DNA of 64,000 bases, taken from NCBI GenBank assembly GCA_964474045.1, contig CAYYRC010000009.1, positions 1,256 to 65,255 of the forward strand, in the 5' to 3' direction. Source of the DNA: an uncultured Actinomycetes bacterium. GTDB lineage: Bacteria > Actinomycetota > Actinomycetes > S36-B12 > UBA10799. This document shows, piece after piece, positions 8,581 through 42,596 of this stretch; position 1 is the first letter of the stretch, and each line of letters begins with the position of its first letter. The notes under the pieces were generated by a model. It was given only the letters and a program-made list of their open reading frames with translations, ran no database searches and was not told where the DNA came from. The position numbers and the translations under genes are program-made.

Positions 8581-10293
8581 TCAGAAGTTCGCCCGCTGGG
8601 CGATCAGCGAGCCCCAGGCCCCCACCCCGGTGTTGATGCCCGGGCGCTGCGCCGGGTCCATCCACCGCAGCATCCACTCCATGTCGGCCTGTCCGACCGA
8701 GATGCAGCCACCGGTGGGCTCGCCGTTGCTGACGTGGAAGAAGAAGGCCGAGCCCGCCTCGCGGTTGCGCTCGACGTTGTAGTCAAGCGCCACTGCGTAG
8801 TTGTACGGCTGACCGATCCAGTGGAGGTTCTCGCTGCCGACACCGGGCGAGGCCTGGCTGCGGACGTGGGTGTTGTAGGTGGGACTGTTCTGGTCGCCGT
8901 CCCACCAGTCCCAGGAGTCGGCCTTGAAGTAGGGCATGCGGGTGCCGGGGTTGGCCAGGTTGCCGAACGCCTGCGACAGCGTCCACGGCCCTTGCGGGGT
9001 GCGGGCGGAGTAGGCGTCGGCCACGCCGGAGCCCTGCTCGCCGACGAACCCCGCCATCGGGCCGCGCACTTGTGCGAAGCGGCCGTCCGGCTGGCGCTGC
9101 CAGGCCGAGATCACCGCGGCGGTGGCGGCGTTGGCCGCCACGGTCACCGTGACCAGTTGGTTGGGGCCGGTCCAGTCCTTGGACGACTCAAGCTTCCGAG
9201 CGGGTAGCACGGCAGCAAGGTCGGCGGTCAGGGCCGTCAGGTCGATGATCAGATGCGCCTGGGTGGTGGTGTAGACGCAGATGTCGGCCGCCGCGTCGGA
9301 GGCGAGGACAGCGTAGTTCGCCTGGCTGCGGCCACCGGCGAACTGCAGTGCGGACGCGGTCGGCCGCGGCTGGTCGCAGGGGTAGGCGGTCAGGTGTCCC
9401 GCCCCGGCCGCTCCCGTCACGGTCAGGTTGAGCAGGGCCTTCGCGCCGGACACCCCGAGGTTGAGCCGCCGGACGCTGCCCGCAGCCATCGGCGCCCCCG
9501 GGTCCACCCGGGTGTCCAGCCGGCGCACTGGTGCCGCCACGACGATCCCGGGGGCGGTTCCGGTCAGGTCGAAGAGCAGGTGCGACGTGGAGGAGGTGTA
9601 GATGCAGAACTCGCCGGCGGCGTTGGTGCGCACGGCCGCGAAGTTGGCGATCACCTCACCGGCCAGGAAGTTCAGCGAGCTGGCCAGCGGCCGCGGCCCG
9701 TCGCAGGGATAGGCAGTGGCGAATCCCCCGTTCGCCGCGCGCACCGCCGTGAGGTTGCCCAGCACCGTCGTGGCGGCGCGACCCGTGCGCACCACCACGA
9801 CGCTGCCGCCGGAGATCGGCGCCGCGCCGTCGCCGGGCAGCCGGGTGTCCAGCACCCGCGCCGGTGAGCCGGCGTCCACCGCCCGCTCCGCGGAGGCGGT
9901 CAGGTCGAAGATCAAGTGGGCCGTCGTCGTCGTGAAGGCGCAGACGCCGCCGCTGGAGCCGGCACGGGCCATCGCCAGGTTGCCGACCGTCTGCCCCGCC
10001 CGGAAGTTCAGCGACGACATGGCCTGGCGCGGGCTGTCGCAGTCGAAGAGGACGGCATGGCCGTCCCCCTCCGGAGCCGTCACGATGAACTCCCCGAGCA
10101 CCGTCTGCCCCGCCGGCACGCCCGTCAGCACGCGCACAGTGGACCCGGCGGGAACCTTCGGCGGGTTCCCCGGCAGCGCCGCCGCCGATGCCGGGGCCGG
10201 CGCGGCGACGCCCGCAGCGGCAAGCCCCAGCAACCCTGCAGCTAGAGCCACCACCGGCCGCCGCCCCCACGCCCGCAGCACGCCACCCGACAT
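8581..10293 (-). CDS. secreted protein: three ~100-aa repeats plus a C-terminal L,D-transpeptidase-like (YkuD-type) catalytic domain
   Basis: Signal peptide MSGGVLRAWGRRPVVALAAGLLGLAAAGVAAPAPASA. Three repeats (9199-10137) share RxLDTR...NLT...YPCD...S(L)NF...AN...C.Y...H(L)..DLT. The C-terminus has FFFHVSNGEPTGGCISV (the H...GC active-site pattern). The start is ATG 10293. Confidence 0.65.
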   Translation of the reverse strand: MSGGVLRAWGRRPVVALAAGLLGLAAAGVAAPAPASAAALPGNPPKVPAGSTVRVLTGVPAGQTVLGEFIVTAPEGDGHAVLFDCDSPRQAMSSLNFRAGQTVGNLAMARAGSSGGVCAFTTTTAHLIFDLTASAERAVDAGSPARVLDTRLPGDGAAPISGGSVVVVRTGRAATTVLGNLTAVRAANGGFATAYPCDGPRPLASSLNFLAGEVIANFAAVRTNAAGEFCIYTSSTSHLLFDLTGTAPGIVVAAPVRRLDTRVDPGAPMAAGSVRRLNLGVSGAKALLNLTVTGAAGAGHLTAYPCDQPRPTASALQFAGGRSQANYAVLASDAAADICVYTTTQAHLIIDLTALTADLAAVLPARKLESSKDWTGPNQLVTVTVAANAATAAVISAWQRQPDGRFAQVRGPMAGFVGEQGSGVADAYSARTPQGPWTLSQAFGNLANPGTRMPYFKADSWDWWDGDQNSPTYNTHVRSQASPGVGSENLHWIGQPYNYAVALDYNVERNREAGSAFFFHVSNGEPTGGCISVGQADMEWMLRWMDPAQRPGINTGVGAWGSLIAQRANF

Positions 10294-28127: not shown

Positions 28128-28721
28128 GTGGAGAGCTCGGCGCTATTGCTCACCGGGATCGGCCTCGCCTCGGCCGCGGGGCTCAACGCCTATATCCCGC
28201 TGCTGATAGCCGGCCTGCTGGCGCACTTCGAGGTCTTCACGCTGGCCCCGCCCTATGACGTGCTGGCCTCCACCCCTGCCCTCGTCATCCTCGCCGTCCT
28301 GCTGGCGGTCGAAGTCCTCGCCGACAAGATCCCGGCGGTCGACTCGATCAACGACGTCGTGCAGACGCTCATGCGGCCAGCTTCCGGCGCGGTGCTGTTC
28401 GCGGCCGCCTTCGGGGCGGACAGCACTTGGACCCAGGCGGCTGCCCTGATAGCCGGGATGGTGACCGCAGGCACCGTCCACGGCGCGAAGGCCGCGGCCC
28501 GACCCGTCGTCAACGTCAGCACCGGCGGCGTCGGGGCCCCTGTCGTCAGCACGGTTGAGGACATCACGTCGGTGGTCCTGACGCTGGCGGCGATCTTCGT
28601 GCCGGTGCTCGTGCTCGTGCTGCTCGCGGCGATGGCCTGGCTGGGCTGGCGCCTGCGCCGGCGCTGGCGGGAGCGCAGGGCTCAGCGGCAACCAGAGCCT
28701 CAGCCCCAGATTCAGCCCTGA
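28128..28721 (+). CDS. DUF4126-domain membrane protein
   Basis: GLNAYIPLLIAGLL...LAVEVLADKIPAVDS pattern, multi-TM, with an Arg-rich C-terminus. Confidence 0.7.
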   Translation: MESSALLLTGIGLASAAGLNAYIPLLIAGLLAHFEVFTLAPPYDVLASTPALVILAVLLAVEVLADKIPAVDSINDVVQTLMRPASGAVLFAAAFGADSTWTQAAALIAGMVTAGTVHGAKAAARPVVNVSTGGVGAPVVSTVEDITSVVLTLAAIFVPVLVLVLLAAMAWLGWRLRRRWRERRAQRQPEPQPQIQP

Positions 28722-28739
28722 CTTCGGCCCAGCACCGCC

Positions 28740-29237
28740 CTACCCACAGGTCAGCGTCTTCGCGCGCGGGCGCTCGCTGACGGTGAGGACGCAGGAGCCG
28801 TCGTCGGCGTAGAGGCTCAGCGACGTCCCACCCGCAGTGTCCTGCAACTGCAGCGACACCCCGGCCTGGGAGGCCATCTGGGTGAACTCGGGGACGATCG
28901 CCCTGGCGGCCAGCTGGTCGCCCATGCCGGTCGGGGCGGCGCAGTCGACCGAGCGGTAGACGTACTCCCCGACCGCAACCAGGCCCAGATCCCCGGAGTG
29001 GACCTGGGATGCGGCCGAGACGCAGCCGGCCTCGTCCGCCCGAGGCGACGTGGAGGCTGCGGCGGCAGACGCCTTCGGGCTGGAGGCCCGCGCGACTGCA
29101 GGCGCCGAAGCGCTGGGCGAGGCATCGGTCGGGGCTGCTGCGCGGAGCATGCTGCAGCCACTGACGAGCAGCACCGCTGCCGCCGCCGCGACGGCAGCCG
29201 ACGAGGGTGGACCCCAACCAGCCATGAACCTCCTCAC
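28740..29237 (-). CDS. hypothetical lipoprotein
   Basis: Signal peptide with lipobox LLVSGC, an Ala/Ser/Pro linker, and four further Cys. I recognised no family. ATG 29225 is an alternative start. Confidence 0.5.
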   Translation of the reverse strand: MRRFMAGWGPPSSAAVAAAAAVLLVSGCSMLRAAAPTDASPSASAPAVARASSPKASAAAASTSPRADEAGCVSAASQVHSGDLGLVAVGEYVYRSVDCAAPTGMGDQLAARAIVPEFTQMASQAGVSLQLQDTAGGTSLSLYADDGSCVLTVSERPRAKTLTCG

Positions 29238-29314
29238 CGGCCACCACGATAGGGGCGCGGGCCGGCGGTGGCGCGCCTGCTCAGCGTCGCCGACCGATCG
29301 CCTAGGGTGTCGTC

Positions 29315-29899
29315 ATGCGATCATCCACGACCGCCAGGGGCGCCACAGCCGTGGCCCTGCTGCTCGGCGGCGCGATGCTCATGGGTGCCTGCGGGGGGTC
29401 AGCGTCCGACGGGTCCACCGCATCGGGCTCCGCATCTGCCTCAGCCTCGGCCAGCGCGTCCAACCCCTATGGCTCCGCCCCGGCGGTGGATCCCCCTGGT
29501 CCCGATGACGCCGTCCTGACGATCCAGGGGGCGGACGGCAAGCAGGTCCAGCTGACGTATGCCCAGCTGCAGGCCATGGACTCGCAGACGATCACGATCG
29601 AGGAGCCCTTCGTCAAGAAGCAGGAGACGTTCACCGGCGTGCCCATGTCGGCGCTGCTGGCGCTGGCGGCCATCCCGAGCACCGCCACGGTCAACACGGT
29701 GGCGCTCAACGACTATGCCTACGCCGCCCCCGCCTCGCAGTTCACCGATGCGCAGGCCCTTGTCGCCTACAAGGTGGACGGCAAGGACATCCCGCTGACC
29801 GAGGGCGGCCCGGTCCGCATCGTGTTCCCGACCGGCACCGCGCAGTTCGGCAACCTCGATGCCTGGAACTGGAGCCTCGAGACAATCCAGCAGCAGTAA
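29315..29899 (+). CDS. lipoprotein with molybdopterin-oxidoreductase-like (Oxidored_molyb-type) domain
   Basis: Lipobox LMGACGG. The pattern LTYAQLQAM...TFTGVPMSALL...ALNDYAYAAP...GGPVRIVFP resembles small stand-alone Mo-oxidoreductase-fold proteins. Confidence 0.55.
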   Translation: MRSSTTARGATAVALLLGGAMLMGACGGSASDGSTASGSASASASASASNPYGSAPAVDPPGPDDAVLTIQGADGKQVQLTYAQLQAMDSQTITIEEPFVKKQETFTGVPMSALLALAAIPSTATVNTVALNDYAYAAPASQFTDAQALVAYKVDGKDIPLTEGGPVRIVFPTGTAQFGNLDAWNWSLETIQQQ

Positions 29900-29923
29900 C
29901 CCCATGGCCGGCCCAAGCGACTC

Positions 29924-32335
29924 ATGAGCGCAAACCGCAGCCGGGGCAGCCTCGGGTGGAGGGTTGCCATCTCGGCCCTCGCAGTGGTCCTCGTCGTGCT
30001 GACGGCGCTCCTGCTGGAATCTTCGATCACGGCGACCCGGCAAGCCTCGCAGCAGGCCCAGTTCGCGTTGTCGACCGAGTCCGCGGCCGCCGACCTCGTG
30101 TTCACCCAGCGCGAGGTGGACAACCTCCTGATCACGGCCAACGAGTATCTGGCCGGAACGTCGACGCGGCGCGATGTGCAGGTGGCCCGGGCGCTGCTCG
30201 AGCGACGGCTGGCCGTCGCCAGCGACCAGGGCGACAACCCGGCGAAGTCCGATGTCGGCCTGCGCACCGCCCTGAGCCAGTTCGACGCGCAGCTGCAGGA
30301 GATGCCCAGCGGCACCCTCGAGGCCTCGGATCGCGACCAATGGGCACTGTTGATCGAGCCACCCCTGATCGCGCTGAACACCCGCGGAAAGCAGCTCTTC
30401 ACCGAGTACGAGCGCAGCGCCTCGCAGCGCTCCAAGGAGCTCGCCGAGCGCCGCGCCGAGGAACAGTTGGAGCTCACGCTGCTCACCATCGCCACCGTCG
30501 TCACGGCGCTGGCGCTCATCGCGACCATCGCCACGCTGACGGTGCGCAACCAACGCCGGGCCAAGCGTCGCCTCGCCGCCGAGGAGTCCCGGCTCAACAC
30601 CGCGCGCGCCCAGCTCGGCCGAACCGCCCTGGTCCTGGAGGAGCAGTCCCGCGTGCTGGACTCGATCGCCACCGGCGCCGAGGTGCAGGCGATCGTGCCC
30701 GTGGTGGCGAGACTGGCCGCCCTCACGACGGACGATGCGGTCGGCCAGGTCCGGTGCGGGTCGATCGTGCTCGCCGTCTTCCCCGAGGACGCCCCACCCG
30801 GTGCCAGCGAGGTGCCCCGTTGGTCGCGCACGCTCGACGGGCTCTGCGGCGAGGCGCCCGCCGAGACCGGCGTGATCGAGGTCTACGCCCGGCAGCCGCT
30901 GTCCGACCAGGGTGTCGAGGAGGCCGAGTCGTGCGCCGACTTGCTGCGCATCGCGATCGAGCGCGACCGCAGCTCGGCGGCACTGGTGCAACAGGCCCGC
31001 CACGACTCCCTGACCGGCCTGCCCAACCGCGCGACCCTCATGGCAGAGCTGGAGTCCGCCGTGACCGAGCGCCGGCGGATCAGCCCGCGCGACAGGGACA
31101 CCGAGCGACTCAGCCTGCTGTTCGTCGACCTCGACCGCTTCAAAGACGTCAACGACACCCTGGGCCACGAGGCCGGGGACCGGCTGCTGATAGAGGTGGT
31201 CGCGCGGCTCCAGGGCGCCGTGCGGCAGAACGACCGGGTGTACCGACTGGCCGGGGACGAGTTCGTCGTGCTGTGCCCGGACCTGCCTGACGACGCCGCG
31301 GCCGAACAGCTGGCGCAACGCCTGCTGGTGTCGCTTGCGGAACCGTTCACCATCAGCAACACCCCGGTATGGGTGGAGGCGAGCATCGGCATCTCGCAGC
31401 TGCGGCCGGACAGCAGCGCCGACGAGCTGCTGCGCGAGGCCGATCTGGCCATGTACCGGGCCAAGCAGGATGGACGCGGGCGCTGGCACGCCTTCGACGA
31501 CGAGCTGGCGACCGCCGCCCACAGCCGGCTGCACCTGAGCAAGGCGTTGCGCAAAGCGGTGGACCAGGAGGAGCTCCGCCTGCTCTATCAACCCGTCGTG
31601 GACATGGCCGACGGCAGGATCGAGGGATTCGAGGCGCTCATCCGGTGGGATCGCCCGCAGCACGGGCTGATCGGCCCGGAGCACTTCCTGGAGATGGCGG
31701 AGGAGACCCGCGACATCCTGGGTATCGGCCGCTGGGTGGTCGCCGAGGCGGCGCGGACCCTCGCCCAGTGGCGGGCCGCCGGGCTCCGCGACGACATCAG
31801 CATGGCGGTGAACGTCACCGCCCAGCAGCTGCGCGACCCGATGTTCATCCACGACATCATCGCCACCATCGCCCGCGAGGGCATCCCCTCGCGCTGCTTG
31901 TCGCTCGAGCTCACCGAGCACAGCCTGATCGACGTGCCCCTCGTAGCCGAGTCGCTGGGCAGGGCGCGGGCCGCGGGGATCCGGCTGGCACTGGACGACT
32001 TCGGCACCGGCTACTCGTCCCTCACGCAACTCGAGGGCTTGCCAGTCGACGTCGTCAAGGTGGACCGGCAGTTCGTCGTGCGGCTGGCCGACGGGGGGCA
32101 CCGACACGAGGTCTTCCTCAGCGCACTGGTGGAGCTCGTGTCGGCGCTGGACCTGGAGCTCATCGTCGAGGGGGTCGAGACCGAGTCGGAGCGGGATGCG
32201 CTGATCGCAGCTGGGTTCCAGATCGGCCAGGGGTACTTGTTCGGCCGTCCGACCACCCCCGCGGCGGCCCTCGCCCTCGCCCTGGCCGACAGCGGCGTCG
32301 GCGGTGCCCAGCCTGGACTCCGAGTGGACCAATGA
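29924..32335 (+). CDS. membrane-bound GGDEF/EAL protein (diguanylate cyclase / c-di-GMP phosphodiesterase)
   Basis: Two TM segments flank a ~160-aa extracytoplasmic helical region, followed by a GAF-like segment. The GGDEF domain has AGDEF and an RxxD I-site. The EAL domain carries EALIRW, ELTE, DDFGTGYSS, EGVE and QGYLFGRP. Confidence 0.9.
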   Translation: MSANRSRGSLGWRVAISALAVVLVVLTALLLESSITATRQASQQAQFALSTESAAADLVFTQREVDNLLITANEYLAGTSTRRDVQVARALLERRLAVASDQGDNPAKSDVGLRTALSQFDAQLQEMPSGTLEASDRDQWALLIEPPLIALNTRGKQLFTEYERSASQRSKELAERRAEEQLELTLLTIATVVTALALIATIATLTVRNQRRAKRRLAAEESRLNTARAQLGRTALVLEEQSRVLDSIATGAEVQAIVPVVARLAALTTDDAVGQVRCGSIVLAVFPEDAPPGASEVPRWSRTLDGLCGEAPAETGVIEVYARQPLSDQGVEEAESCADLLRIAIERDRSSAALVQQARHDSLTGLPNRATLMAELESAVTERRRISPRDRDTERLSLLFVDLDRFKDVNDTLGHEAGDRLLIEVVARLQGAVRQNDRVYRLAGDEFVVLCPDLPDDAAAEQLAQRLLVSLAEPFTISNTPVWVEASIGISQLRPDSSADELLREADLAMYRAKQDGRGRWHAFDDELATAAHSRLHLSKALRKAVDQEELRLLYQPVVDMADGRIEGFEALIRWDRPQHGLIGPEHFLEMAEETRDILGIGRWVVAEAARTLAQWRAAGLRDDISMAVNVTAQQLRDPMFIHDIIATIAREGIPSRCLSLELTEHSLIDVPLVAESLGRARAAGIRLALDDFGTGYSSLTQLEGLPVDVVKVDRQFVVRLADGGHRHEVFLSALVELVSALDLELIVEGVETESERDALIAAGFQIGQGYLFGRPTTPAAALALALADSGVGGAQPGLRVDQ

Positions 32336-32373
32336 CTCTGCACGGCAGGTCGATGCAGCCCTAGCCTGAGGAC

Positions 32374-33060
32374 ATGGAACCAAACGCCGCAGGGCCGCCG
32401 CCGGGATACTCGGTCAGTCCGCCGCCGGGCGGAGCCCCGCCCAGCGGCCCACCAGCGCGCGCCGAGTGGTCGGGACTGGGCGTCAGCCTCGGCGGCCGGG
32501 TGCTCCTGCGCGACTTCACCGCCAGCGCGTTCGACGGCCAGGTCGTCGGCGTCGTGGGGCCAGCCGGCACCGACCTCGACGCCGTGCTGTTGGCGCTGGC
32601 AGGCCGGTTCGGCCCCGTGACCGGCTCGGTGGTCATCCAGGGGTCGCCCGAGTCCGTCAGCCTCGGCGGCGTGCCGGAGGAGGAACACCTGGACCCGCTC
32701 CTCACCGTCCACGAGACGCTGGCCGAGGTCAGCCGACCCAGCGCAGACGGCTCCACCCGACAGTCAGCCGACTGGTCGCTCATGGCCACCGGCCTCACCT
32801 CCCGCGTGGATGCCCGCATCCGAGACCTCAACGTCGAGGAGAGGTTCCGCCTGGGCATCGCGATGGGGGCGGCGTCGGGAGCGTCGTTGATCGTGACCGA
32901 CCTGTCGAGGGTGGCCGGACACCAGGCCAGCGACGAACTGTGGACCCTCCTGCGCCAGCTCGCCGCCAGCGGCCGGGTGGTCGTCGTGGCCGCCCCTGAC
33001 CGCCACGAGTTCATGAACCTCGTCATACCCGTCCCGGCTTCCCTGGAGGCAGCGCGATGA
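32374..33060 (+). CDS. ABC ATPase-like protein with degenerate catalytic motifs
   Basis: The layout is collinear with ABC NBDs, but each motif is altered. Walker A reads GPAGTDLD, the signature motif reads LNVEERFR, and Walker B plus the catalytic Glu reads LIVTDLS. The N-terminus is Pro-rich. Confidence 0.55.
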   Translation: MEPNAAGPPPGYSVSPPPGGAPPSGPPARAEWSGLGVSLGGRVLLRDFTASAFDGQVVGVVGPAGTDLDAVLLALAGRFGPVTGSVVIQGSPESVSLGGVPEEEHLDPLLTVHETLAEVSRPSADGSTRQSADWSLMATGLTSRVDARIRDLNVEERFRLGIAMGAASGASLIVTDLSRVAGHQASDELWTLLRQLAASGRVVVVAAPDRHEFMNLVIPVPASLEAAR

Positions 33061-34889
33061 TCGGCTCCAGCATCACCCACGGCCTGACCCGCTGGTTCCG
33101 CGGGCCGCGGATCGCCGTCGGACTCGTCCTGCTGCTGCTCACCGCGGCCGTCACGGCAGGTCTGACCATCTGGTCGAACTGGAACCCTGTCGGCAACACC
33201 GCCGACCTGCCAGCCGCGCTGGTGGACGAGGACGTCCCGGCTACCGTGGGTGGGGCAACCGTCGACGCCGGCAAGAAGCTGGCGCAGGAGATGCTCTCGC
33301 AGGCGTCGTTGAGCTGGACGCAGACCGACATGGCCGACGCCCAGGCAGGCCTGGACACCGGGCGCTTCGCCGTCGTCTTCCGCATCCCCGCCGACTTCAG
33401 CGCCAACGTCGCGAGCCTGCGGACCGATGCTCCCGAGCAGGCGACGATCGACGCGTACACCAACGACGCGACCAACTACCTGGCCGGCGATCTGGCGGCC
33501 GACGCCATGGTCAGCGTCGAGAAGGACATCGGCGCCAAACTCTCCCTCAACTTCATCGACACGGTCTACGGCGCCCTGCCGCAGGCGAAGAAGCAGGGCG
33601 AGACCGCAGTGGCCGGCGCCAAGGCCGTCAACGACTCGGCGAAGCAGGCTCAGGCGCAGGCCACCACCACCACCGAGCAGGCCAACCAGGTCGCCACGGC
33701 CGGTGATGCCGCTGCCAAGGCCGCGGCGGACGCCGTGACCGCGGGCAAGCCGCTGCCGCAGGAGGTCACCGCCCTCGCCGCCTCCGTCCAGGACCTGACG
33801 ACCTCCGTGTCGGCGATGTCCAGCGGGGCAAAGGCGATCGACAGCAACCTCGCCGCGCTGCAGCAGCAGCTGACCGCCAAGAACCTGCCCGACCTCGCAG
33901 CCCAGCTCGGCGCCATCCGCACCAACTACAACACTGTGGTGCTGGCGCCCATGGCCCAGGCCGCCACCAAGGGGGCCGCCGTCGGCACGGCGGTGAAGAA
34001 GCTCGACGCCGACGTCCAGGCGACCACCGGAAAGGCCGCGTCCGCGCAGGCGGCTGCCGCCGGCCTTCTCTCCTCGGCGCAGCAGACGGCCACCAGCGCG
34101 GCTGCCACGCAGACCACGCTGGACAGCCAGACCGTCCCCGAGTCCACAACCCTCTTCCAGGGTCTGTCGGCGGCGGCCGCGCAGGTTCCCCCGATCTCGG
34201 ATGCCCAGCGCGCGACGCTCACCAAGGTGCTGGCGCAGCCCATCGACGTCGTGAACCAGCGCCAGAACGCGGTGCAGTACTTAGGCGAGGGCTTCGCTCC
34301 CTACTACATCCCGATCGGGCTGTTCGTGGGCGCGGTCGCGCTCTTCCTGTTCCTCGCGCCCGTCAGCCGTCGCCTGCTCGACTTCGGGTTCGCGCCGATC
34401 AAGGCTGCCTTGAGCGGTTGGACCCCTGCCTTCGTGCTCGCCGTGGGGCAGGTCGCCCTGGTGGCTCTCGTCGTCGTCCTGCTCGGCATGAAGGTGGCCG
34501 CCTGGCTGCCTTTCCTCGGCATCCTGCTGCTTTCGGCGGCGTGCTTCCTGGCGATCGTGCAGCTCCTCAAGGTGGCCTTCGGCGCCGGGGGCGTGATTGC
34601 GGCGCTGTTGCTCTTCATCGTGCAGGCCACGGCATCGGCCGGCACCTTCCCGCTGCAGTCGCTGCAGCGCATCTTCATCTGGCTGCACCCCTTCATGCCG
34701 ATGTCCTACTCGGTCGACGGGATACGGCGCAGCATGGCCGGCGGCCCGCTCACGCCCTTCCTCTGGACCGACGCCGCCGTGCTGCTCGGGGTGACCGTCG
34801 TGTGCCTCGCCATCACCACGGCCCTGGCTGGTCGGCAGCGCCGCCTGAACGCCGCCCGGCTGCAGCCGACGCTGGTCTTCGACTCGTGA
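33057..34889 (+). CDS. YhgE/Pip-domain membrane protein (ABC-2 permease-like)
   Basis: N-terminal TM segment, the YhgE/Pip N-domain pattern (PAALVDED...FAVVFRIPADFS), a long Ala/Gln/Thr-rich helical ectodomain and a C-terminal multi-TM block. Its ATG overlaps the upstream stop (ATGA). Confidence 0.8.
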   Translation: MIGSSITHGLTRWFRGPRIAVGLVLLLLTAAVTAGLTIWSNWNPVGNTADLPAALVDEDVPATVGGATVDAGKKLAQEMLSQASLSWTQTDMADAQAGLDTGRFAVVFRIPADFSANVASLRTDAPEQATIDAYTNDATNYLAGDLAADAMVSVEKDIGAKLSLNFIDTVYGALPQAKKQGETAVAGAKAVNDSAKQAQAQATTTTEQANQVATAGDAAAKAAADAVTAGKPLPQEVTALAASVQDLTTSVSAMSSGAKAIDSNLAALQQQLTAKNLPDLAAQLGAIRTNYNTVVLAPMAQAATKGAAVGTAVKKLDADVQATTGKAASAQAAAAGLLSSAQQTATSAAATQTTLDSQTVPESTTLFQGLSAAAAQVPPISDAQRATLTKVLAQPIDVVNQRQNAVQYLGEGFAPYYIPIGLFVGAVALFLFLAPVSRRLLDFGFAPIKAALSGWTPAFVLAVGQVALVALVVVLLGMKVAAWLPFLGILLLSAACFLAIVQLLKVAFGAGGVIAALLLFIVQATASAGTFPLQSLQRIFIWLHPFMPMSYSVDGIRRSMAGGPLTPFLWTDAAVLLGVTVVCLAITTALAGRQRRLNAARLQPTLVFDS

Positions 34890-35554
34890 CGGCCCCGGCG
34901 GCCCCGTCGGCAGGCGAGCACTGGGACGAGGTCTATGCAGGCCACCGCGAGGACGGGGTGAGCTGGTATCAGCCGGCGCCCGAACCGTCGCTGCGCCTGC
35001 TGCGCGCGGCCGCGCCGAATCCCGCGTCGGTGATCGACGTCGGGGGCGGGCGGTCAAGGCTCGCCGGTGCCCTGGCGGCCGCGGGATGCCGGGACGTGAC
35101 GGTGCTGGACGTGTCCGCCACGGCGCTCGCCGACCTGGCCGCCTCGTTCGCCGCGAGCGGCGGCGACCCGGCAGCCATCGAGCTTCAGGTGGCCGACATC
35201 CGCACCTGGACACCCGACCGACGCCGGCTCCTGTGGCACGACCGCGCAGTCTTCCACTTCCTGGTGGACGGGACCGACCGCGACGCCTATGTCCGCGCGG
35301 CGACGGAAGGGGTCGAGCCGGGAGGCGCCCTGGTGATGGGGACATTCGCGCCCGACGGCCCGCGGCAGTGCTCGGGATTGCCCACCGCCCGCTACTCCGC
35401 CGACGATCTGGCCCGCTTGTTCGCGGACGGTTTCGACCTCGAGGCGACCGAGGCACACCTCCACACGACGCCGTGGGACGCCGGGCAGAGCTTCACCTGG
35501 GTGGTCCTGCGCCGACGGGGACCCGGACCCCGCCAGCCGGCTCCGAGGACCTAG
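34886..35554 (+). CDS. class I SAM-dependent methyltransferase
   Basis: 222 aa from GTG 34886, which overlaps the YhgE stop (GTGA). Motif I is VIDVGGGRSRL, and VLDVS is also present. Confidence 0.75.
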   Translation: MTAPAAPSAGEHWDEVYAGHREDGVSWYQPAPEPSLRLLRAAAPNPASVIDVGGGRSRLAGALAAAGCRDVTVLDVSATALADLAASFAASGGDPAAIELQVADIRTWTPDRRRLLWHDRAVFHFLVDGTDRDAYVRAATEGVEPGGALVMGTFAPDGPRQCSGLPTARYSADDLARLFADGFDLEATEAHLHTTPWDAGQSFTWVVLRRRGPGPRQPAPRT

Positions 35555-37659
35555 CCGGCGTGGCTGGGCGCGGCATGCTCCCGGTGTGAGGGCCCCTTCG
35601 GATACACGGGCAGCGGGCCGGTTGCCGGCGGCTCCGGCTGCAGCCCCACACGGAGCAACTCCTCCAAGTCGTCCTCGGTGGTCGGCCCGTCCTCGCCGCG
35701 CCACTTGCCGAGCGTGGTGAGCACCTCCTGCCGGGCCTGGTCCCGCTCGTCGCCGGACTTCGCGTTGGCCGCCGCCCAGCGACGGTTGATCTCCCACGCC
35801 CGCTCGCGCAGTCGGAGCGCCCACTCGATGCGGTCGCGCTGGGGCTGGGTGCGCGGCAGGCGCCACACCTCGCTGATGATGTCGGGCAGGACGTCGCGGT
35901 AGTCGTGGCCGCCTTCGGCGAAGATCCCCGGGGTCGGGGTGAGGGCGTTCATCATGTCGATGAATGTGGCGAAGAACGTGGTCACGGGCGTCCAGCTGGT
36001 CCCGTGCGGGGAGCCCGGGGGCCGCTGTTCCTCCGGCCCGAGCCACGGCGGCCGTCGCCACACCACCTCGGCCCCGAACTTCGGGATCGGGTCGTCGCCG
36101 TTCTGCAGCGCCAGGTACCGCACGTTGGCCCGATCCTGAGCGGGCAGCGCCTTCCAGTCCTTGATGGCCCGCGGCAGGAAGAGCGCGCCGGGCCCCACCT
36201 CGGGCGGCTCGGCAACGGTCCGCTCCCCCCAGACCTCGCGCCGCCACTCCGTGGCGTCCGGGGTGCCGATCCAGATCGCCGAGTCGAAGCCGGAACCCTC
36301 CAGCCCGAAGGTGTACGTGCCGCGGAACATCTCCTCGCTGACCTGCGAGCCCAGCGACTCCCCGAACAGCAGGAAGACGGGCCGGTCCTTCGGGTCGCGC
36401 TCCGCGAGCCGTTTGTTGAGGCCGTCCAGCACCATCCTCGTCTGGTCGGTGCCGGTGCCCACCTTGGTCAGCGACAGCGACGACGGCAGCACCGAGTACT
36501 GGATGGCGGCGCTGGCGCAGTCGCCACCGGTCAGGTACTCCAGAGTCTCGTCTGCGACGTAGTTGACGTAGCCGGAACCGGTCGGCGAGAAGAGCGCGAA
36601 GACCCTCCGGTCAAGGGCGTTGGTGCGGTCGACCTCGTCCAGCAGAGCCTGCGCCCGCTCGTGGGGGGTGGCCGATCCGCCCAACGACGCATACACGCGG
36701 ATGGGCTGCTTGGCATCCGTCGTGCCCATCACGGCGTCGATACCCGCCGGGGTGAGCGCCATGCTGAGCCAACGCCGGCCCTCGCGGCTCAGCGTGTCCC
36801 AGGCGACCCCGGACGCGGGGCTGCCCGTCACCTCGGGCGTGGCAGGCGGCGTGGCGTGCGCGGGCTCCATACCCTCGCCCCCTCGGGTGAGCTTGGCCGC
36901 GACCGTCGTCACGGCCAGCCATCCCAGGCCGTAGGTGGCCGCAGTGGCGCCGACACGTCCCAGAGTGCGGTGCTCAGCCGGGGATCCGCCCAGCACGAAG
37001 CTCGCGCTGTGCGCGAAGCCCCTGCTCAGCGCCGCCTCGCCGCGGGCCAGCCCGAACGACAGCAGCGTCACGACGACCCCGATGGCACCGGCCGTCATCG
37101 GCGAGACCTCGCGCACGTCGTCCTCGAAGAACTTGCCGGGCGCCACGAGCGAGCCCGGCGCCTGCTTCCAGGGACGGGTGTAGAGCCAGGATCCCGCCCC
37201 CGCAACAGCTGAGGCGCCGAGCATGGGAAGCCCCATGCCCCGCCCCTTGAGGAGCATCCCCAGCCCGATCGACGCCAATCCCGCACTCCCCGCCGCCGCC
37301 ACGCTGCCGGCCGCGAGACGGCCGATCGGACGGCGGGCAGGCTCGTGCTCGCGCCATCGCAGAGCCGCGGCCACACCCAGTCCGGCGGCCGCCGCGGTGG
37401 CATCCACGGCAGCCAGCGTGGCCACGTTGGTGCGCCCGCCGCCGAACCGGCGCGACACCGCGGCCAGCATCGAGTGGACCGAGATCCCCAGGCCGTAACC
37501 CGCAGCGGCGGAGACGCCGGTGATCACAGCCTGGTCAACCGTGTTCCGCGTGAGCAGGTTGGGCTGGTAGGACCGCCCCGATGCCACCGCGGAGAGCAGC
37601 AGCGCAGCACGTCCCGAGTGATCCAGAGCGTTGAGGTCGCGTTCGTCGAAGAAACCCAT
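35551..37659 (-). CDS. membrane-anchored alpha/beta hydrolase (Abhydrolase_9-like)
   Basis: 702 aa from MGFFDERDL. An N-terminal polytopic membrane domain is followed by a hydrolase domain with the nucleophile elbow GESLGS. Confidence 0.75.
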   Translation of the reverse strand: MGFFDERDLNALDHSGRAALLLSAVASGRSYQPNLLTRNTVDQAVITGVSAAAGYGLGISVHSMLAAVSRRFGGGRTNVATLAAVDATAAAAGLGVAAALRWREHEPARRPIGRLAAGSVAAAGSAGLASIGLGMLLKGRGMGLPMLGASAVAGAGSWLYTRPWKQAPGSLVAPGKFFEDDVREVSPMTAGAIGVVVTLLSFGLARGEAALSRGFAHSASFVLGGSPAEHRTLGRVGATAATYGLGWLAVTTVAAKLTRGGEGMEPAHATPPATPEVTGSPASGVAWDTLSREGRRWLSMALTPAGIDAVMGTTDAKQPIRVYASLGGSATPHERAQALLDEVDRTNALDRRVFALFSPTGSGYVNYVADETLEYLTGGDCASAAIQYSVLPSSLSLTKVGTGTDQTRMVLDGLNKRLAERDPKDRPVFLLFGESLGSQVSEEMFRGTYTFGLEGSGFDSAIWIGTPDATEWRREVWGERTVAEPPEVGPGALFLPRAIKDWKALPAQDRANVRYLALQNGDDPIPKFGAEVVWRRPPWLGPEEQRPPGSPHGTSWTPVTTFFATFIDMMNALTPTPGIFAEGGHDYRDVLPDIISEVWRLPRTQPQRDRIEWALRLRERAWEINRRWAAANAKSGDERDQARQEVLTTLGKWRGEDGPTTEDDLEELLRVGLQPEPPATGPLPVYPKGPSHREHAAPSHAG

Positions 37660-38000: not shown

Positions 38001-41000
38001 ATGGACGCGTCCCGCTCGGCCGATACCCGCGCGGCTGACGGCGACGACGCACTCGCGGCCATGTCGCCGGCGGCAGGAGCATGGTTCGCGGGCGCATTCG
38101 AGGCCCCGACGCCGGCGCAGATCGGCGCCTGGAAGGCGATCCGTTCGGGCGACTCGGCGCTCGTCATCGCCCCCACGGGGTCGGGCAAGACGCTTGCAGC
38201 CTTCTTCAGCGCCCTCGACGAGCTCAGCACCCGCAACACCGCCCAAGGCCGACCGGCGCGGGAACAGCGGACCAGCGTGCTCTACATCTCCCCGCTGAAA
38301 GCCCTGGCCGTGGACGTACAGCGCAACCTGCGGGCGCCACTTGCGGGACTGCGCCAGGAGGCAGCGCGGCTGGGCGGCCAACCTCCCGACATCACCGTGG
38401 GGCTGCGAACCGGGGACACGCCGCCCGACGAGCGCCGGCGGCTGGCCCGCACCCCGCCGGACATCCTCATCACCACGCCGGAGTCACTCTTCCTGCTGCT
38501 CACCTCGGCCGCCCGGGAGTCCCTGCGCGGCGTGCGGACGGTCATCATCGACGAGATCCACGCTGTCGCCGGCACCAAGCGGGGGGCGCACCTCGCGGTC
38601 TCGCTCGAGCGGCTCGATGCCCTGCTGCCCGGGCCCGCAGCCCGGATCGGCCTCTCCGCCACGGTTCGCCCCGCGTCGGAGATGGCGCGATTCCTGGGCG
38701 GCGGCCGGCCGGTGCGGATCGTCGCCGAGCCGGCGCAGAAGGAGCTGGACATCTCCGTGATCGTCCCCGTCGAGGACCTGGGCGAGCTCGGGCCGACGCT
38801 GGCAGCGCCGGACGGGTCGGTCGCCGGTGCTGCCGCGGGGAGCGCCGGGTCCATCTGGCCGCATGTCGAGGAGCGGGTCGCCGACCTCATCGCCGAGCAC
38901 CACTCCACCCTGGTGTTCGTCAACTCCCGTCGGCTGGCCGAGCGCCTGACGAGCCGCCTGAACGAGATCGCCGCGGACCGCGCCGCGCCGGCGGCAGACG
39001 CCACCGCGCCCGTGATCGCCCGCGCCCACCACGGCTCGGTCAGCAAGGAGCAGCGCGCGCTTATCGAGGAGGACCTGAAGGCCGGGCGGCTGCCCGCCGT
39101 GGTGGCGACCAGCAGCCTGGAGCTAGGCATCGACATGGGCGAAGTTGACCTCGTGGTGCAGGTGGAGTCCCCACCCACGATCGCCGCCGGGCTGCAGCGA
39201 GTGGGACGCGCGGGGCACCATGTGGGCGCGGTGAGCCGCGGTCGGATCTTCCCCAAGTACCGCGCCGACCTGCTGCAGGCGGCCGTCGTGGCCAGCCACA
39301 TGCGCGAGCGCCGGATCGAGCACCTGCGCATCGGGGAGAATCCGCTGGACGTCCTCGCACAGCATGTCGTGGCCGCCGCCGCGATGGACGACTGGCAGGT
39401 CGACGACCTGGCAGCGCTGGTGCGCCGCGCGGCGCCGTTCCAGTCGTTGCCCGAGTCGTCGTGGTTGGCCGTGCTGGAGATGCTCGCCGGCGCCTACCCG
39501 TCCGACGTGTTCGCCGAGCTGCGGCCCAGGCTGGTGTGGGACCGCGACCGCGACGTGATCAGCGGTCGGCCGGGGGCCCAGCGGCTGGCGGTCACCAGCG
39601 GCGGGACCATCCCAGACCGCGGGCTCTTCGCCGTGTACCTAGCCGGCGGCGCAGGCGGCAGGCTGGGCGAGCTGGACGAGGAGATGGTCTACGAGTCGCG
39701 CGTCGGCGACGTGTTCGCGCTCGGGGCCGCCAGCTGGCGCATCGAGGACATCACCCACGACCGAGTGCTGGTGTCCCCCGCGCCGGGCGTCCCCGGACGC
39801 ATGCCGTTCTGGCACGGCGACGCCCTGGGTCGGGGTGCGGAGCTGGGCCGGGCCATGGGTGCGTTCGTGCGCGAGGTCAGCGCCCTGTCCCCGTCCGAGG
39901 CCGTGGAGAGGCTGCGCGGCGAGGGGCTCGACGAGCTCGCCGCCGCGAACCTGACCGCGTACCTGTCAGAGCAGCTCGCCGCCACCGGGGCGCTGCCAAC
40001 CGATCGCGCGCTGCTGCTGGAGCGCTTTCGCGACGAGCTCGGCGACTGGCAGGTGGTCCTGCACTCCCCTTTCGGCGCAGCCGTGCACGCGCCATGGGCC
40101 CTGGCCGCCGCGGCGGCGCTGCGCGAACAGCTGGGCGTGGACGTCGCGGCGTTCCACAGCGACGACGGCATCGTGCTGCGGATTCCGGACGGCGAGGACG
40201 ACGTGGTCTGGGACGACGTCCGCGCAGCCGTTCTCGTCGATCCCGGCGAGGTCGATCGCATCGTGACGGCTGAGGTGGGCGGCAGCGCCTTGTTCGCCGC
40301 CCGTTTCCGGGAATGCGCCGCGCGGTCGCTGCTGCTCCCGCGTCGGCAACCCGGCAAGCGCGCTCCGCTGTGGCAACAGCGTCGGCGCAGCGCCCAGCTG
40401 CTCGCCATCGCGGCCGAGTACCCGGGGTTCCCGGTGGTGCTGGAAGCCATGCGGGAATGCCTGCAGGACGTCTACGACCTGTCGGCCCTGCGCGAGCTGC
40501 TCACCGGTCTGGGCAACGGCTCCATCGCCCTGCGAGAGGTATCCACCGAGCAGCCAAGCCCGTTCGCGCGGTCGCTGCTGTTCGGATACGTCGAGGCCTT
40601 CATGTACGAGGGCGATTCCCCTCTGGCAGAACGACGCGCGCAGGCGCTGGCCCTTGATTCCTCGCTGCTGGCCGAGCTCCTGGGGACCGTCGAGCTGCGC
40701 GAGCTGCTGGACGCCGAGGCGATGGCTGCAGTCGCGGCGGAGGTCGGTTGGCGAACCGCCGAGCGTCCGCTGCGCGACGTCGAAGACCTTGCTGACGCAC
40801 TCCGGGTGCTGGGACCGTTGGCCGACGCCGACCTCGTACTGCGCGGGGCGGACCCAGGATGGGCACGGGCGCTGGTGGCGGCCAGGCGCGCCATCGAGGT
40901 CCGGATCGCCGGCGAGCAGCGCTTCGCGGCCGTGGAAGACGCCGGCCGGCTGCGCGACGCCCTGGGGACAGCCCTGCCCGTCGGCGTGCCCACCGCCTTC

Positions 41001-42596
41001 ACGGAACCAGTGTCCGATCCCCTCGGTGACCTGCTCGCACGGTACGCGCGAACGCATGGGCCGTTCACCGCCGACGAGGCGGCGGCCAACCTGGGGATCG
41101 GACGGGCCGTCGCGGAGGACACGCTGGAGCGGCTGAGCGGCACGGGCCGCGTCGTCACGGGCGAGTTCCGACCTGGGGGCGCCGGCCGCGAGTGGTGCGA
41201 TACCGAGGTGCTGCGCCGCGTCCGTCGTCGGAGCATCGCCGCCCTTCGCCGCGAGGCCGAGCCCGTGCCGCAGGCGCAGTACGCCTCGTTCCTGCCGAGG
41301 TGGCAGGGGGTGGGCGGCGATGCCCGCGGGGCCGACGGCCTCTTTGCCGCTATTGACCGCCTCGCCGGCTGCCCGGTCCCGCTGTCGGCCCTGGAGAGCC
41401 TCGTACTGCCCAGCCGCGTTCGCGACTACAGCCCTGCGCAGCTCGATTCCCTGACGTCGGCCGGGGACGTGATCTGGACGGGCGCGGGCGGGCTGCCCGG
41501 CGGCGATGGCTGGGTCGTCTTCGCACCCGCCGACGCTCCCGAGCTGCTGCCGGACGCACTTCCGCTGGCGGACTCCGTCTCGCACCCTGACCTAGCCGCC
41601 GCCGTGCTGGGCGCCGTGGACGTCGGCGGCGGCTGGTTCCACGGCCAGATCCTGGCGAACCTGAGTGCGGCGCAGCCCGAGGGTTTCACCGCTGACGCTC
41701 TGGCCGACACGCTGCTCGAGCTGCTCTGGGCGGGATGGATCAGCAACGACACTCTGGAACCCGTCCGGCGCCGCCTCGGCCGACGCCCGGCGCGCCGGAC
41801 CGGCGGCCCGCCGCAACTGACCTCGCCGCTGACCTCGCCGCCGGCCGCAGGCACGCGGAGCCGCCGTCCCGGGGCGGTCCGGCGCGGCCGGGTGCGGCCG
41901 GATTCCCGCACCGCAGCGAGGGCAAGCCTGCTGCCGGGGCGTTGGTCCGCGGTACCGCGGGGCAGCCTCGATCCGACCGTCCGCGCGGCGGCAGGGGCCG
42001 AATGGCTGCTCGCCAGGCACGCGGTACTCACCCGGGGGGCCCTGTCCATGGAGCGCTACCCAGGGGGCTTCACGACGGCTTACAAGGTTCTCAGTCAGAT
42101 GGAGGAGTCCACCGGAGGCTGCATCCGCGGCTACGCCATCGAGGGGCTGGGCGGCGCCCAGTTCACCACGGCGACGGCCGTCGACCGGCTTCGCGCCCAC
42201 CAGCCTGGGGAGTCCGCGGGAGCTGGCACGGGCCTGCTGCTGGCTGCGGCCGACCCGGGGCAGCCCTACGGCGCGGCGCTCCCCTGGCCTGCGCGCGCGG
42301 CGGCCGAGGCGAGCGGTCACCGCCCGGCGCGGAAGGCGGGGGCGTCGGTGGTGCTGGTGTCCGGACGTCCGGTCGCCTACCTGGAGCGCGGCGGCCGCTC
42401 GCTGCTGACGTGGACGGACGACCCGGCTGAGCTGGCAAGCGCCGCGGGGGCCTTCGCCGAGGCCGTGCGCGCGCGCCGCCTTGGCGCGGTGTCCATCCAG
42501 CGTGTCGACGGAGCGGGCATCGCGGACTCGGCGGCCGGTGCCGCACTCCTGCAGGCCGGGTTCGTCTGGACGCCCCGCGGCATGCGGCTCCGTTGA
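38001..42596 (+). CDS. lhr: ATP-dependent DNA helicase Lhr (full-length, with C-terminal extension)
   Basis: 1531 aa with APTGSGKTLAAF (motif I), IIDEIHA (DExH), ATSSLELGID and QRVGRAGH. Lhr-core winged-helix and domain-4 regions are followed by a ~650-aa C-terminal extension. Confidence 0.95.
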   Translation: MDASRSADTRAADGDDALAAMSPAAGAWFAGAFEAPTPAQIGAWKAIRSGDSALVIAPTGSGKTLAAFFSALDELSTRNTAQGRPAREQRTSVLYISPLKALAVDVQRNLRAPLAGLRQEAARLGGQPPDITVGLRTGDTPPDERRRLARTPPDILITTPESLFLLLTSAARESLRGVRTVIIDEIHAVAGTKRGAHLAVSLERLDALLPGPAARIGLSATVRPASEMARFLGGGRPVRIVAEPAQKELDISVIVPVEDLGELGPTLAAPDGSVAGAAAGSAGSIWPHVEERVADLIAEHHSTLVFVNSRRLAERLTSRLNEIAADRAAPAADATAPVIARAHHGSVSKEQRALIEEDLKAGRLPAVVATSSLELGIDMGEVDLVVQVESPPTIAAGLQRVGRAGHHVGAVSRGRIFPKYRADLLQAAVVASHMRERRIEHLRIGENPLDVLAQHVVAAAAMDDWQVDDLAALVRRAAPFQSLPESSWLAVLEMLAGAYPSDVFAELRPRLVWDRDRDVISGRPGAQRLAVTSGGTIPDRGLFAVYLAGGAGGRLGELDEEMVYESRVGDVFALGAASWRIEDITHDRVLVSPAPGVPGRMPFWHGDALGRGAELGRAMGAFVREVSALSPSEAVERLRGEGLDELAAANLTAYLSEQLAATGALPTDRALLLERFRDELGDWQVVLHSPFGAAVHAPWALAAAAALREQLGVDVAAFHSDDGIVLRIPDGEDDVVWDDVRAAVLVDPGEVDRIVTAEVGGSALFAARFRECAARSLLLPRRQPGKRAPLWQQRRRSAQLLAIAAEYPGFPVVLEAMRECLQDVYDLSALRELLTGLGNGSIALREVSTEQPSPFARSLLFGYVEAFMYEGDSPLAERRAQALALDSSLLAELLGTVELRELLDAEAMAAVAAEVGWRTAERPLRDVEDLADALRVLGPLADADLVLRGADPGWARALVAARRAIEVRIAGEQRFAAVEDAGRLRDALGTALPVGVPTAFTEPVSDPLGDLLARYARTHGPFTADEAAANLGIGRAVAEDTLERLSGTGRVVTGEFRPGGAGREWCDTEVLRRVRRRSIAALRREAEPVPQAQYASFLPRWQGVGGDARGADGLFAAIDRLAGCPVPLSALESLVLPSRVRDYSPAQLDSLTSAGDVIWTGAGGLPGGDGWVVFAPADAPELLPDALPLADSVSHPDLAAAVLGAVDVGGGWFHGQILANLSAAQPEGFTADALADTLLELLWAGWISNDTLEPVRRRLGRRPARRTGGPPQLTSPLTSPPAAGTRSRRPGAVRRGRVRPDSRTAARASLLPGRWSAVPRGSLDPTVRAAAGAEWLLARHAVLTRGALSMERYPGGFTTAYKVLSQMEESTGGCIRGYAIEGLGGAQFTTATAVDRLRAHQPGESAGAGTGLLLAAADPGQPYGAALPWPARAAAEASGHRPARKAGASVVLVSGRPVAYLERGGRSLLTWTDDPAELASAAGAFAEAVRARRLGAVSIQRVDGAGIADSAAGAALLQAGFVWTPRGMRLR

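Follow-up and report, generated by a model that had tools for sequence, protein, structure and literature searches.

Two probably independent modules in a five-gene actinobacterial cluster: a PruR-DcpA-like sensor pair and a YhgE/Pip protein with a degenerate ABC partner

Introduction

Five consecutive genes lie on the plus strand at positions 29315-35554 of a 64,000-nt stretch of DNA, here called the window, and run into a convergent hydrolase gene which was examined together with them. The question raised by this locus is whether genes packed so closely build one machine or only stand side by side. In their order on the DNA they encode a lipoprotein (gene 1), a membrane-bound GGDEF-EAL protein of cyclic di-GMP (c-di-GMP) turnover (gene 2), a protein resembling the nucleotide-binding domain (NBD) of ATP-binding cassette (ABC) proteins (gene 3), a membrane protein of the YhgE/Pip family (gene 4) and a class I S-adenosylmethionine (SAM) methyltransferase (gene 5). 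The source is an uncultured freshwater actinobacterium whose close relatives are annotated Candidatus Nanopelagicales; the database entries nearest to the window are metagenome-assembled genomes labelled Actinobacteria or Candidatus Nanopelagicales, and the window has a G+C content of about 70-74% and no compositional break.

An earlier note on this DNA proposed that the five genes form an envelope machine built on YhgE/Pip and tied to c-di-GMP. Its coordinates, gaps and overlaps all agree with a direct reading of the sequence, and its domain calls with profile searches of each gene product. Gene 1 ends with TAA at 29897-29899 and gene 2 starts 24 nt further on with the ATG at 29924; the TGA of gene 2 ends at 32335 and, after 38 nt, gene 3 starts with the ATG at 32374. 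Genes 3 and 4 overlap by 4 nt in ATGA (33057-33060), with GGAGG 7 nt upstream, genes 4 and 5 overlap by 4 nt in GTGA (34886-34889), and the CTAG at 35551-35554 contains the stop codons of both gene 5 and the convergent Abhydrolase_9 gene (Table 1).

The reading that we favour, with moderate confidence, is that the stretch holds two independent modules side by side, a PruR-DcpA-type sensor made of genes 1 and 2 and a relic transporter made of the dead NBD and YhgE/Pip, together with accessory genes. That the c-di-GMP module and the YhgE module are independent of each other, neighbours and not one machine, is likely.

Distribution of the genes among related genomes

Orthologs of YhgE with 37-87% identity were gathered from ten lineages by look-ups of the encoding contigs and a genome scan, and the genes of the window were scored against these lineages by tblastn. 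Scanning with the YhgE alignment found only 5 loci in genomes and 2 in metagenomes, and the neighbourhood statistics therefore rest on about ten lineages. In all ten the pseudo-NBD gene directly precedes yhgE, in most cases overlapping it by 4 nt. The same arrangement is present outside the clade in Streptomyces, Cellulomonas (two loci), Rhodococcus, Arthrobacter and Tsukamurella, and at every locus examined the two genes are adjacent or overlapping.

The c-di-GMP genes are distributed differently. A GGDEF-EAL gene is present at the locus in three of the ten lineages (the window, L003 and L019), which form one weakly supported branch (64% bootstrap) in a neighbour-joining tree of YhgE, (L013,(L020,((L019,(window,L003)),(L006,(L004,(L008,L010,L012)))))). 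The PruR-like gene is present in three, possibly four, lineages (the window, L019 and L004; L003 is cut at the contig end). Pairs of NBD and YhgE without any c-di-GMP gene are found in the other seven lineages and in all five outgroup genera, and PruR-like genes with their sensor partners occur elsewhere without any YhgE gene. The neighbourhood is conserved in part: this applies to the pair and to the hydrolase, which stays in 7/10 lineages (see below), but neither to the GGDEF-EAL gene nor to the methyltransferase, the latter found in close relatives only; a five-gene machine tied to c-di-GMP does not follow from these patterns.

A conserved pair of a pseudo-NBD and YhgE/Pip

The ABC ancestry of gene 3 is clear from profile and fold comparisons, although ABC_tran scores 19.9 bits against a Pfam cut-off of 25. 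A profile of the gene 3 family matches the NBDs of ABCA4, ABCA7, ABCA1, ABCG1 and NosF in the PDB (best E = 2e-20), and the AlphaFold2 model (confidence score pLDDT 88) is matched by Foldseek with probability 1.00 to the NBDs of LolD, CcmA, MacB, FtsE, CbiO and ABCG1. Profiles and model thus agree that the protein is ABC-related, a point on which the earlier proposal depended.

The motifs of an ATPase are gone. In the alignment Walker A reads GPAGTDLD and has no lysine, Walker B reads VTDLS with the Asp-Glu replaced, and LNVEE stands in place of the LSGGQ signature. No glutamine aligns with the Q-loop and no histidine with the H-loop, one His being found three residues off the H-loop column. 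The statement of the earlier note that every catalytic motif is degenerate is upheld by this alignment. All five motifs are degenerate in every one of the ten lineages and in the five outgroup genera, where many pseudo-NBDs have Arg for the Walker A Lys (e.g. GPSGSGRT). Judged from these replacements, the gene 3 product very probably does not hydrolyse ATP, and in this clade it probably cannot bind ATP either.

It should be noted that the gene is not decaying. The ratio of nonsynonymous to synonymous substitution rates (dN/dS) is 0.13 against the L003 ortholog and 0.12 against that of L001, comparable to the neighbours (EAL region 0.12-0.17, YhgE 0.18, hydrolase 0.11; the methyltransferase has 0.22), and the pseudo-NBD is therefore under purifying selection.

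An exhaustive search with gene 3 through 1.84 billion representative proteins gave 1527 matches at E <= 1e-3. Beyond the cluster of the query itself, the best relatives are a handful of degenerate proteins of 199-223 residues with 31-52% identity. Among the 149 best-listed of the 1527 matches, 124 have a canonical Walker A, most of those listed being ABC ATPases; Walker A is non-canonical in the remaining 25, and 24 of those also lack the signature. None of the long matches of this search matched the YhgE profile, and accordingly no fusion of NBD and YhgE was seen among them.

Gene 4 passes the cut-offs of both YhgE/Pip models (TIGR03061 126.9 bits against 96, TIGR03062 170.8 bits against 102). 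Its AlphaFold2 model, of medium confidence (pLDDT 69), has an N-terminal transmembrane (TM) helix, a membrane-proximal alpha/beta domain at about residues 51-136, long helices that make up a stalk (residues 143-375, about 230 in all) and, at the C-terminus, a TM bundle of the ABC-2 type. Foldseek gave partial matches only (E > 1e-3); these comprise the membrane domains of ABCH, ABCG5/8, ABCG25 and ABCA1 as well as 3cni, the structure of one domain from a putative ABC type-2 transporter. A sequence search of the PDB gave nothing, and neither search identified a structure homologous over the whole protein.

The family is listed in TCDB as PIP, 9.B.74, and related to ABC-2 (PMC3924187). We compared gene 4 with the members Pip of Lactococcus, YueB of Bacillus, PIP of Enterococcus and the type VIIb secretion subunit EsaA. 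It shares with them the N-terminal TM helix, the large extracytoplasmic domain with a helical stalk and the C-terminal bundle related to ABC-2 permeases. The protein is shorter, 610 residues against about 830-980 in three Bacillota loci examined, and its model has no beta-rich head domain. The N-terminal model of EsaA is matched weakly, below threshold (TIGR03929, 61 bits against a cut-off of 122), and no type VII secretion genes are found in the neighbourhood, unlike for EsaA; by these comparisons gene 4 is a member of the YhgE/Pip family and not the type VIIb secretion subunit. The phage-binding region of enterococcal PIP is reported to be hypervariable (bioRxiv 10.1101/2020.08.17.254201). 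A hypervariable, phage-receptor-like stalk was considered for gene 4 and rejected, the stalk having a dN/dS of 0.18 and the other parts 0.14-0.24. A further difference is that gene 4 and its actinobacterial orthologs are paired with an NBD-like gene at every locus examined, whereas the three YhgE/Pip loci on Bacillota plasmids have no annotated NBD next to them; this is indicative only, as the PLSDB gene tables are incomplete.

Genes 3 and 4 are a translationally coupled conserved pair. The earlier note argued from the spacing for physical coupling of at least the last three genes; translational coupling is supported for gene 3 and YhgE, and the methyltransferase is restricted to close relatives. 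In gene order and translational coupling the pair is typical of an ATPase-permease operon, and it resembles the ABC-2 or type V exporters (NosFY, the eukaryotic ABCA and ABCG proteins) both in the best profile matches of gene 3 and in the match of gene 4 to ABC2_membrane_3. It differs from them in that every residue for ATP binding and hydrolysis is replaced across the whole actinobacterial pseudo-NBD family, so the complex cannot be a usual ATP-driven pump. Likeness is also found with the mechanotransmission ABC systems FtsEX, MacB and LolCDE: FtsE, MacB and LolD are among the top structural matches of the pseudo-NBD model, and the large extracytoplasmic domain of gene 4 is inserted between TM1 and TM2. 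In those systems the movement of the outer domain depends on ATP hydrolysis, whereas the motor is dead here, and their membrane fold is type VII and not ABC-2.

The picture that emerges from these comparisons is an ABC-2 operon in which the ATPase appears to have died early in Actinomycetota and yet was retained. The module would be a relic ABC-2 transporter in which YhgE/Pip keeps the ABC-2-type membrane bundle; the stalk would project into the wall, and no ATP would be used. Whether the pseudo-NBD is a structural or regulatory cap which holds a YhgE/Pip dimer, instead of a motor, we regard as an even call. In the searchable literature we found no description of the dead-NBD/YhgE pair, and no functional study of YhgE in connection with ABC proteins, Streptomyces or mycobacteria, or of Abhydrolase_9.

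Some peculiarities of the pair in other genera may be mentioned. A TetR-family regulator gene follows directly after the pair on the same strand at three Streptomyces and Cellulomonas loci (L014, 10130-10756; L015, 10015-10557; L016, 5426-5968), which suggests ligand-responsive control there. The Arthrobacter pseudo-NBD (342 residues; L029, 3862-4890) has a C-terminal tail of tandem 8-residue repeats (consensus VELVETPS, some variant), an unusual low-complexity extension for an NBD-like protein. In three distant genera glutamate decarboxylase or acid-resistance genes are next to or near YhgE/Pip: a decarboxylase gene directly downstream in Rhodococcus (L028, 6093-7472), gadC and gad genes just upstream in Listeria (L032, 59-2989), and genes for an amino-acid permease, a DUF308 (HdeD-like) protein and a glutamate decarboxylase around it in Enterococcus (L033, 955-2400, 4867-5427 and 6663-8033). 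These neighbours may hint at a link of YhgE/Pip to pH or acid stress.

A probable PruR-DcpA-type sensor pair

The earlier note knew of no described pathway combining these parts. For genes 1 and 2 there is one. PruR, a pterin-binding protein of the periplasm, has a degenerate SUOX fold and lacks the molybdenum-binding cysteine; pruR is found upstream of dcpA, and in DcpA two TM helices flank a periplasmic loop of 138-150 residues, followed by a GGDEF-EAL or GGDEF-only output (Greenwich et al., PNAS 2024; PMC11194511). In that paper (PMC11194511) the system is described for Proteobacteria only, including Agrobacterium tumefaciens.

Gene 1 is likewise a small secreted SUOX-like protein. The Oxidored_molyb match covers profile positions 9-145 of 169, and the closest solved relatives are four PruR-family pterin-binding structures (7kom, 7kp2, 7rkb and 7kos/7kou; E = 3e-10 to 8e-9 in the PDB), true sulfite dehydrogenases matching only at E = 0.02. 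Gene 1 has a lipobox in its signal peptide, and Cys26 of the lipobox is conserved in at least 90% of a 30-sequence family alignment; the mature protein has no cysteine at all, and the molybdenum ligand is thus absent. In the same alignment P98, Y134 and W186 are invariant and N132 is conserved in at least 90%. ALNDY, the segment that includes the pterin-contacting Asn and Tyr, is matched at each residue in the alignment with 7kom, 7rkb and 7kos, and 7kp2 has ALNKY. By alignment N132, Y134 and W186 match the pterin contacts N102, Y104 and W160 of the A. tumefaciens protein, the equivalence of W186 and W160 being taken from position and not from a structural superposition. By analogy gene 1 is probably a non-catalytic ligand-binding protein, the predicted ligand being a pterin or similar heterocycle outside the membrane.

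Gene 2 has the corresponding layout. Hydrophobic segments at residues 8-39 and 181-208 enclose an extracytoplasmic helical loop of about 141 residues, within the range of 140-150 seen in this arrangement, and are followed by a cytoplasmic linker, GGDEF and EAL. In place of the GGDEF motif the window protein reads AGDEF, as does its L019 ortholog (59% identity); the RxxD site is present and all EAL motifs are intact. Because of the altered GGDEF motif and the intact EAL motifs, the enzyme is probably mainly a c-di-GMP phosphodiesterase; the combination of a degenerate GGDEF and an intact EAL is also reported for some proteobacterial homologues, e.g. VC1934.

A PruR-like gene upstream of a gene for a 2-TM GGDEF or GGDEF-EAL protein is also found in L019 and L021. 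The N-terminal 350 residues of gene 2 are homologous to the N-terminus of the GGDEF-only protein of L021 (30% over 337 residues, E = 2e-23) and to that of a histidine kinase of L023 (E = 9e-9), and both of these genes come after a PruR-like gene. In L021/L022 a 55% homologue of gene 1 is directly upstream of the GGDEF-only gene with a 4-nt overlap, in a different context, and in L023 a 41% homologue precedes the histidine kinase gene. Plasmid relatives of gene 1 in Klebsiella (4-nt overlap), Agrobacterium and Pseudosulfitobacter stand directly before kinase genes (histidine kinases in the first two), and the Deinococcus relative is two genes upstream of a histidine kinase. Since the sensor loop is homologous across different output domains, the lipoprotein is associated with one particular loop and not with one type of output. 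A match on a Streptomyces plasmid was set aside as a full-length SUOX-type enzyme beside an FAD/NAD reductase and not a PruR-like sensor.

We are rather confident in assigning genes 1 and 2 to the PruR-DcpA type of sensor pair. By analogy with that system the ligand-bound lipoprotein would dock on the extracytoplasmic loop of the GGDEF-EAL protein and shift the balance of the enzyme. The host here is an actinobacterium and pterin binding is predicted; gene 1 is a lipoprotein where PruR is free in the periplasm, and the sensor loop family of gene 2 is also fused to histidine kinases.

In L004 a PruR-like gene (8699-9298) lies directly upstream of the pseudo-NBD gene and there is no GGDEF-EAL gene. 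Asp replaces the pterin-contacting Asn in its product (VDDY against LNDY), and it may be an orphaned sensor, decaying or repurposed.

The hydrolase and the methyltransferase

Gene 5, the methyltransferase, matches Methyltransf_25 with 31.2 bits, above the cut-off of 27. Only L003 (70% identity) and L017 share it with the window; it is confined to the 78-100% relatives of the window and is absent from the eight other lineages. It is a lineage-specific, recent add-on.

The Abhydrolase_9 gene behaves differently. Its open reading frame reaches back to 37881. No homologue aligns before residue 29, and most alignments begin between residues 52 and 103, which makes Met75, at about 37659, the probable start. 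The nucleophile motif GESLG is an intact GxSxG. Orthologs with 62-85% identity are convergent to yhgE in L003, L004, L006, L013, L019 and L020, so that the gene stays with the pair in 7/10 lineages and is absent at this position only in the subclade L008/L010/L012. It is kept in L013 though both flanks differ there (PHO4 and TerC upstream; SfLAP, acetyl-CoA hydrolase and GPAT downstream), and in L020 though the upstream flank differs. No Abhydrolase_9 gene is found beside the pair in the Streptomyces, Cellulomonas, Rhodococcus, Arthrobacter and Tsukamurella loci. PDB searches with the methyltransferase and the hydrolase gave distant relatives or none. The hydrolase is a long-standing neighbour and a possible partner of the pair in this clade.

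Weighing of the alternatives

Several observations weigh against the reading as two modules, one of them of the PruR-DcpA type. The sample comprises only about ten lineages and five outgroup genera. The modules are on one strand and only 38 nt apart, and the order PruR-like, GGDEF-EAL, NBD, YhgE is kept in L019 despite an identity of 51% in YhgE. Promoter and terminator scans of the 38-nt gap gave nothing better than shuffled sequence, and the 32335/32374 junction folds no better than shuffles (z = +0.66) and has no stable hairpin; a mapped promoter or terminator here is what the earlier note had named as evidence against its own model, and the sequence scans showed no consensus of either kind. 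The upstream backbone of DUF2510 (-), PPIase (-) and DUF4126 (+) is common to most lineages. The flanking synteny being shared, conservation of order within the clade is partly plain synteny and neighbourhood arguments become weaker. In the sensor pair, the proline of the Pro-Trp motif of PruR is invariant, but actinobacterial members have Phe (PF) where proteobacterial ones have Trp (PW). The WX7E motif, reported as invariant in the periplasmic loops of proteobacterial DcpA (PMC11194511), is missing: the pattern W.{7}E does not occur within residues 1-210 of the partner proteins of the window, L019 and L021, whose loops instead share an (F/Y/L)x(Q/M)RE segment, and homology of the gene 2 loop to the DcpA loop is not demonstrated.

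The tight spacing is also the strength of the model that all five plus-strand genes are one operon for a YhgE/Pip envelope machine controlled by c-di-GMP, for example by c-di-GMP binding to the dead NBD. It has in its favour the single strand, the gaps of 24 and 38 nt, the two 4-nt overlaps, the lack of a terminator-like element or stable structure at 32335/32374, and the recurrence of the four-gene order plus hydrolase in L019 (49-59% identity for the four genes, 67% for the hydrolase). Degenerate nucleotide pockets are at times reused as ligand sensors. We nevertheless find the model unlikely: most lineages and all outgroup genera have the pair and no c-di-GMP gene, PruR-like/sensor pairs are found in unrelated contexts, L004 keeps the neighbours and has no GGDEF-EAL gene (lost or never there), the spacer between the EAL and NBD genes varies from 38 nt in the window to 114 nt in L019, and the methyltransferase is limited to close relatives. 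Rfam found no RNA family anywhere in the window and hence no c-di-GMP riboswitch. Read-through transcription across 32335/32374 in this genome is plausible, and a regulatory link may exist.

Two further models concern the YhgE module only. An energised transporter, in which the dead NBD heterodimerises with a canonical NBD encoded elsewhere or another energy source is used, and which exports an envelope component, is the least likely of those considered. It is well known that an ABC transporter may have one of its ATP sites degenerate, the membrane bundle still fits ABC-2 type transporter models, and the TetR gene downstream of the pair in Streptomyces and Cellulomonas recalls many efflux operons; but at every locus examined there is a single NBD-like gene beside yhgE and none with a canonical motif, with Q-loop, signature, Walker B glutamate and H-loop all lost, gene 3 could not contribute a functioning composite ATP site, and in Bacillota YhgE/Pip proteins manage without an annotated adjacent NBD. 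The other model joins pseudo-NBD, YhgE/Pip and Abhydrolase_9 (and, in the window lineage, the methyltransferase) in the remodelling of envelope lipids or a wall polymer, YhgE/Pip presenting or positioning the substrate for the hydrolase. The strongly conserved hydrolase with its intact GxSxG, its persistence beside yhgE in seven lineages, also where one or both outer flanks differ (L020, L013), and its absence from one subclade only speak for it, while the convergent orientation excludes co-transcription, the outgroup genera have no adjacent Abhydrolase_9 and the L008/L010/L012 subclade has the pair without the hydrolase at this position. Such a function is doubtful, although on balance the hydrolase is a more credible partner of the YhgE module than the c-di-GMP genes are.

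Implications

With two modules side by side as the favoured reading, the first is a new phylum-level member of the known PruR-DcpA system, and the second an ABC-2 or YhgE/Pip system with a conserved pseudo-ATPase, a description of which was not found in the searchable literature. A PruR-DcpA-type pair in Actinomycetota would extend pterin-linked control of c-di-GMP beyond Proteobacteria, and the fusion of the sensor loop to kinases as well points to a broader family of extracellular sensor partners.

Many Gram-positive bacteria have YhgE/Pip proteins. The literature that we found characterises them in two roles only, as receptors for phages and as the type VIIb secretion subunit, and the searchable literature gave no account of their native function. 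Every actinobacterial YhgE/Pip examined is accompanied by an ABC domain without catalytic residues which is under purifying selection, and this offers a testable handle on the function of the family. It raises the questions what a dead ATPase contributes to a membrane domain of the ABC-2 type and whether the dead ATPase has a ligand. The comparison suggests an evolutionary series from a working ABC-2 pump through a pseudo-ATPase complex in Actinomycetota to an orphan YhgE/Pip in Bacillota. One may go further and imagine that throughout Actinomycetota YhgE/Pip forms an obligate complex with the dead ABC domain, an ATP-free envelope-spanning device with the NBD as scaffold or ligand sensor, which in the window lineage is wired to an extracellular pterin-type signal through c-di-GMP and acts with Abhydrolase_9; this is a speculative proposal which we think improbable as a whole.

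Other features of the region

Table 1. Features of the cluster and its surroundings (positions in the window)
Feature	Position	Strand	Evidence or remark
DUF4126 membrane-protein gene	28128..28721	+	
227-residue open reading frame	28564..29247		probably spurious
160-residue open reading frame	28740..29225	-	lipoprotein-type signal
Gene 1, PruR-like lipoprotein	29315..29899	+	Oxidored_molyb E = 8e-14, lipobox Cys26
Gene 2, DcpA-like membrane GGDEF-EAL protein	29924..32335	+	GGDEF 9e-43, EAL 3e-63
Gene 3, pseudo-NBD	32374..33060	+	minimal ABC NBD fold; ABC_tran E = 1e-3, below Pfam threshold
Gene 4, YhgE/Pip protein	33057..34889	+	TIGR03061 6e-37, TIGR03062 3e-50, ABC2_membrane_3 7e-14
Gene 5, class I SAM methyltransferase	34886..35554	+	Methyltransf_25 E = 4e-7
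Membrane-anchored Abhydrolase_9 serine hydrolase	35551..37659	-	Abhydrolase_9 1e-54, Abhydrolase_9_N 2.5e-13
Lhr-type large helicase	38001..42596	+	1531 residues; DEAD, Helicase_C, Lhr winged-helix domains, DEAD_assoc

The 160-residue open reading frame is divergent from gene 1; its product begins MAGWGPPSSAAVAAAAAVLLVSGC and has no Pfam match. A gene of 157 residues at the same position in L004 also has no Pfam match, and by tblastn it has no similarity to the one in the window. The listed open reading frame of 227 residues is in another frame and overlaps the DUF4126 gene. The latter is found ahead of the locus on the same strand in most lineages (e.g. L006, 8645-9250; L008, 8660-9367); in L008 only 16 nt separate its end from the pseudo-NBD gene, so that it may be co-transcribed with the pair there. 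The large helicase gene just past the hydrolase is present at this position in none of the related loci, which places a synteny breakpoint beside the hydrolase.

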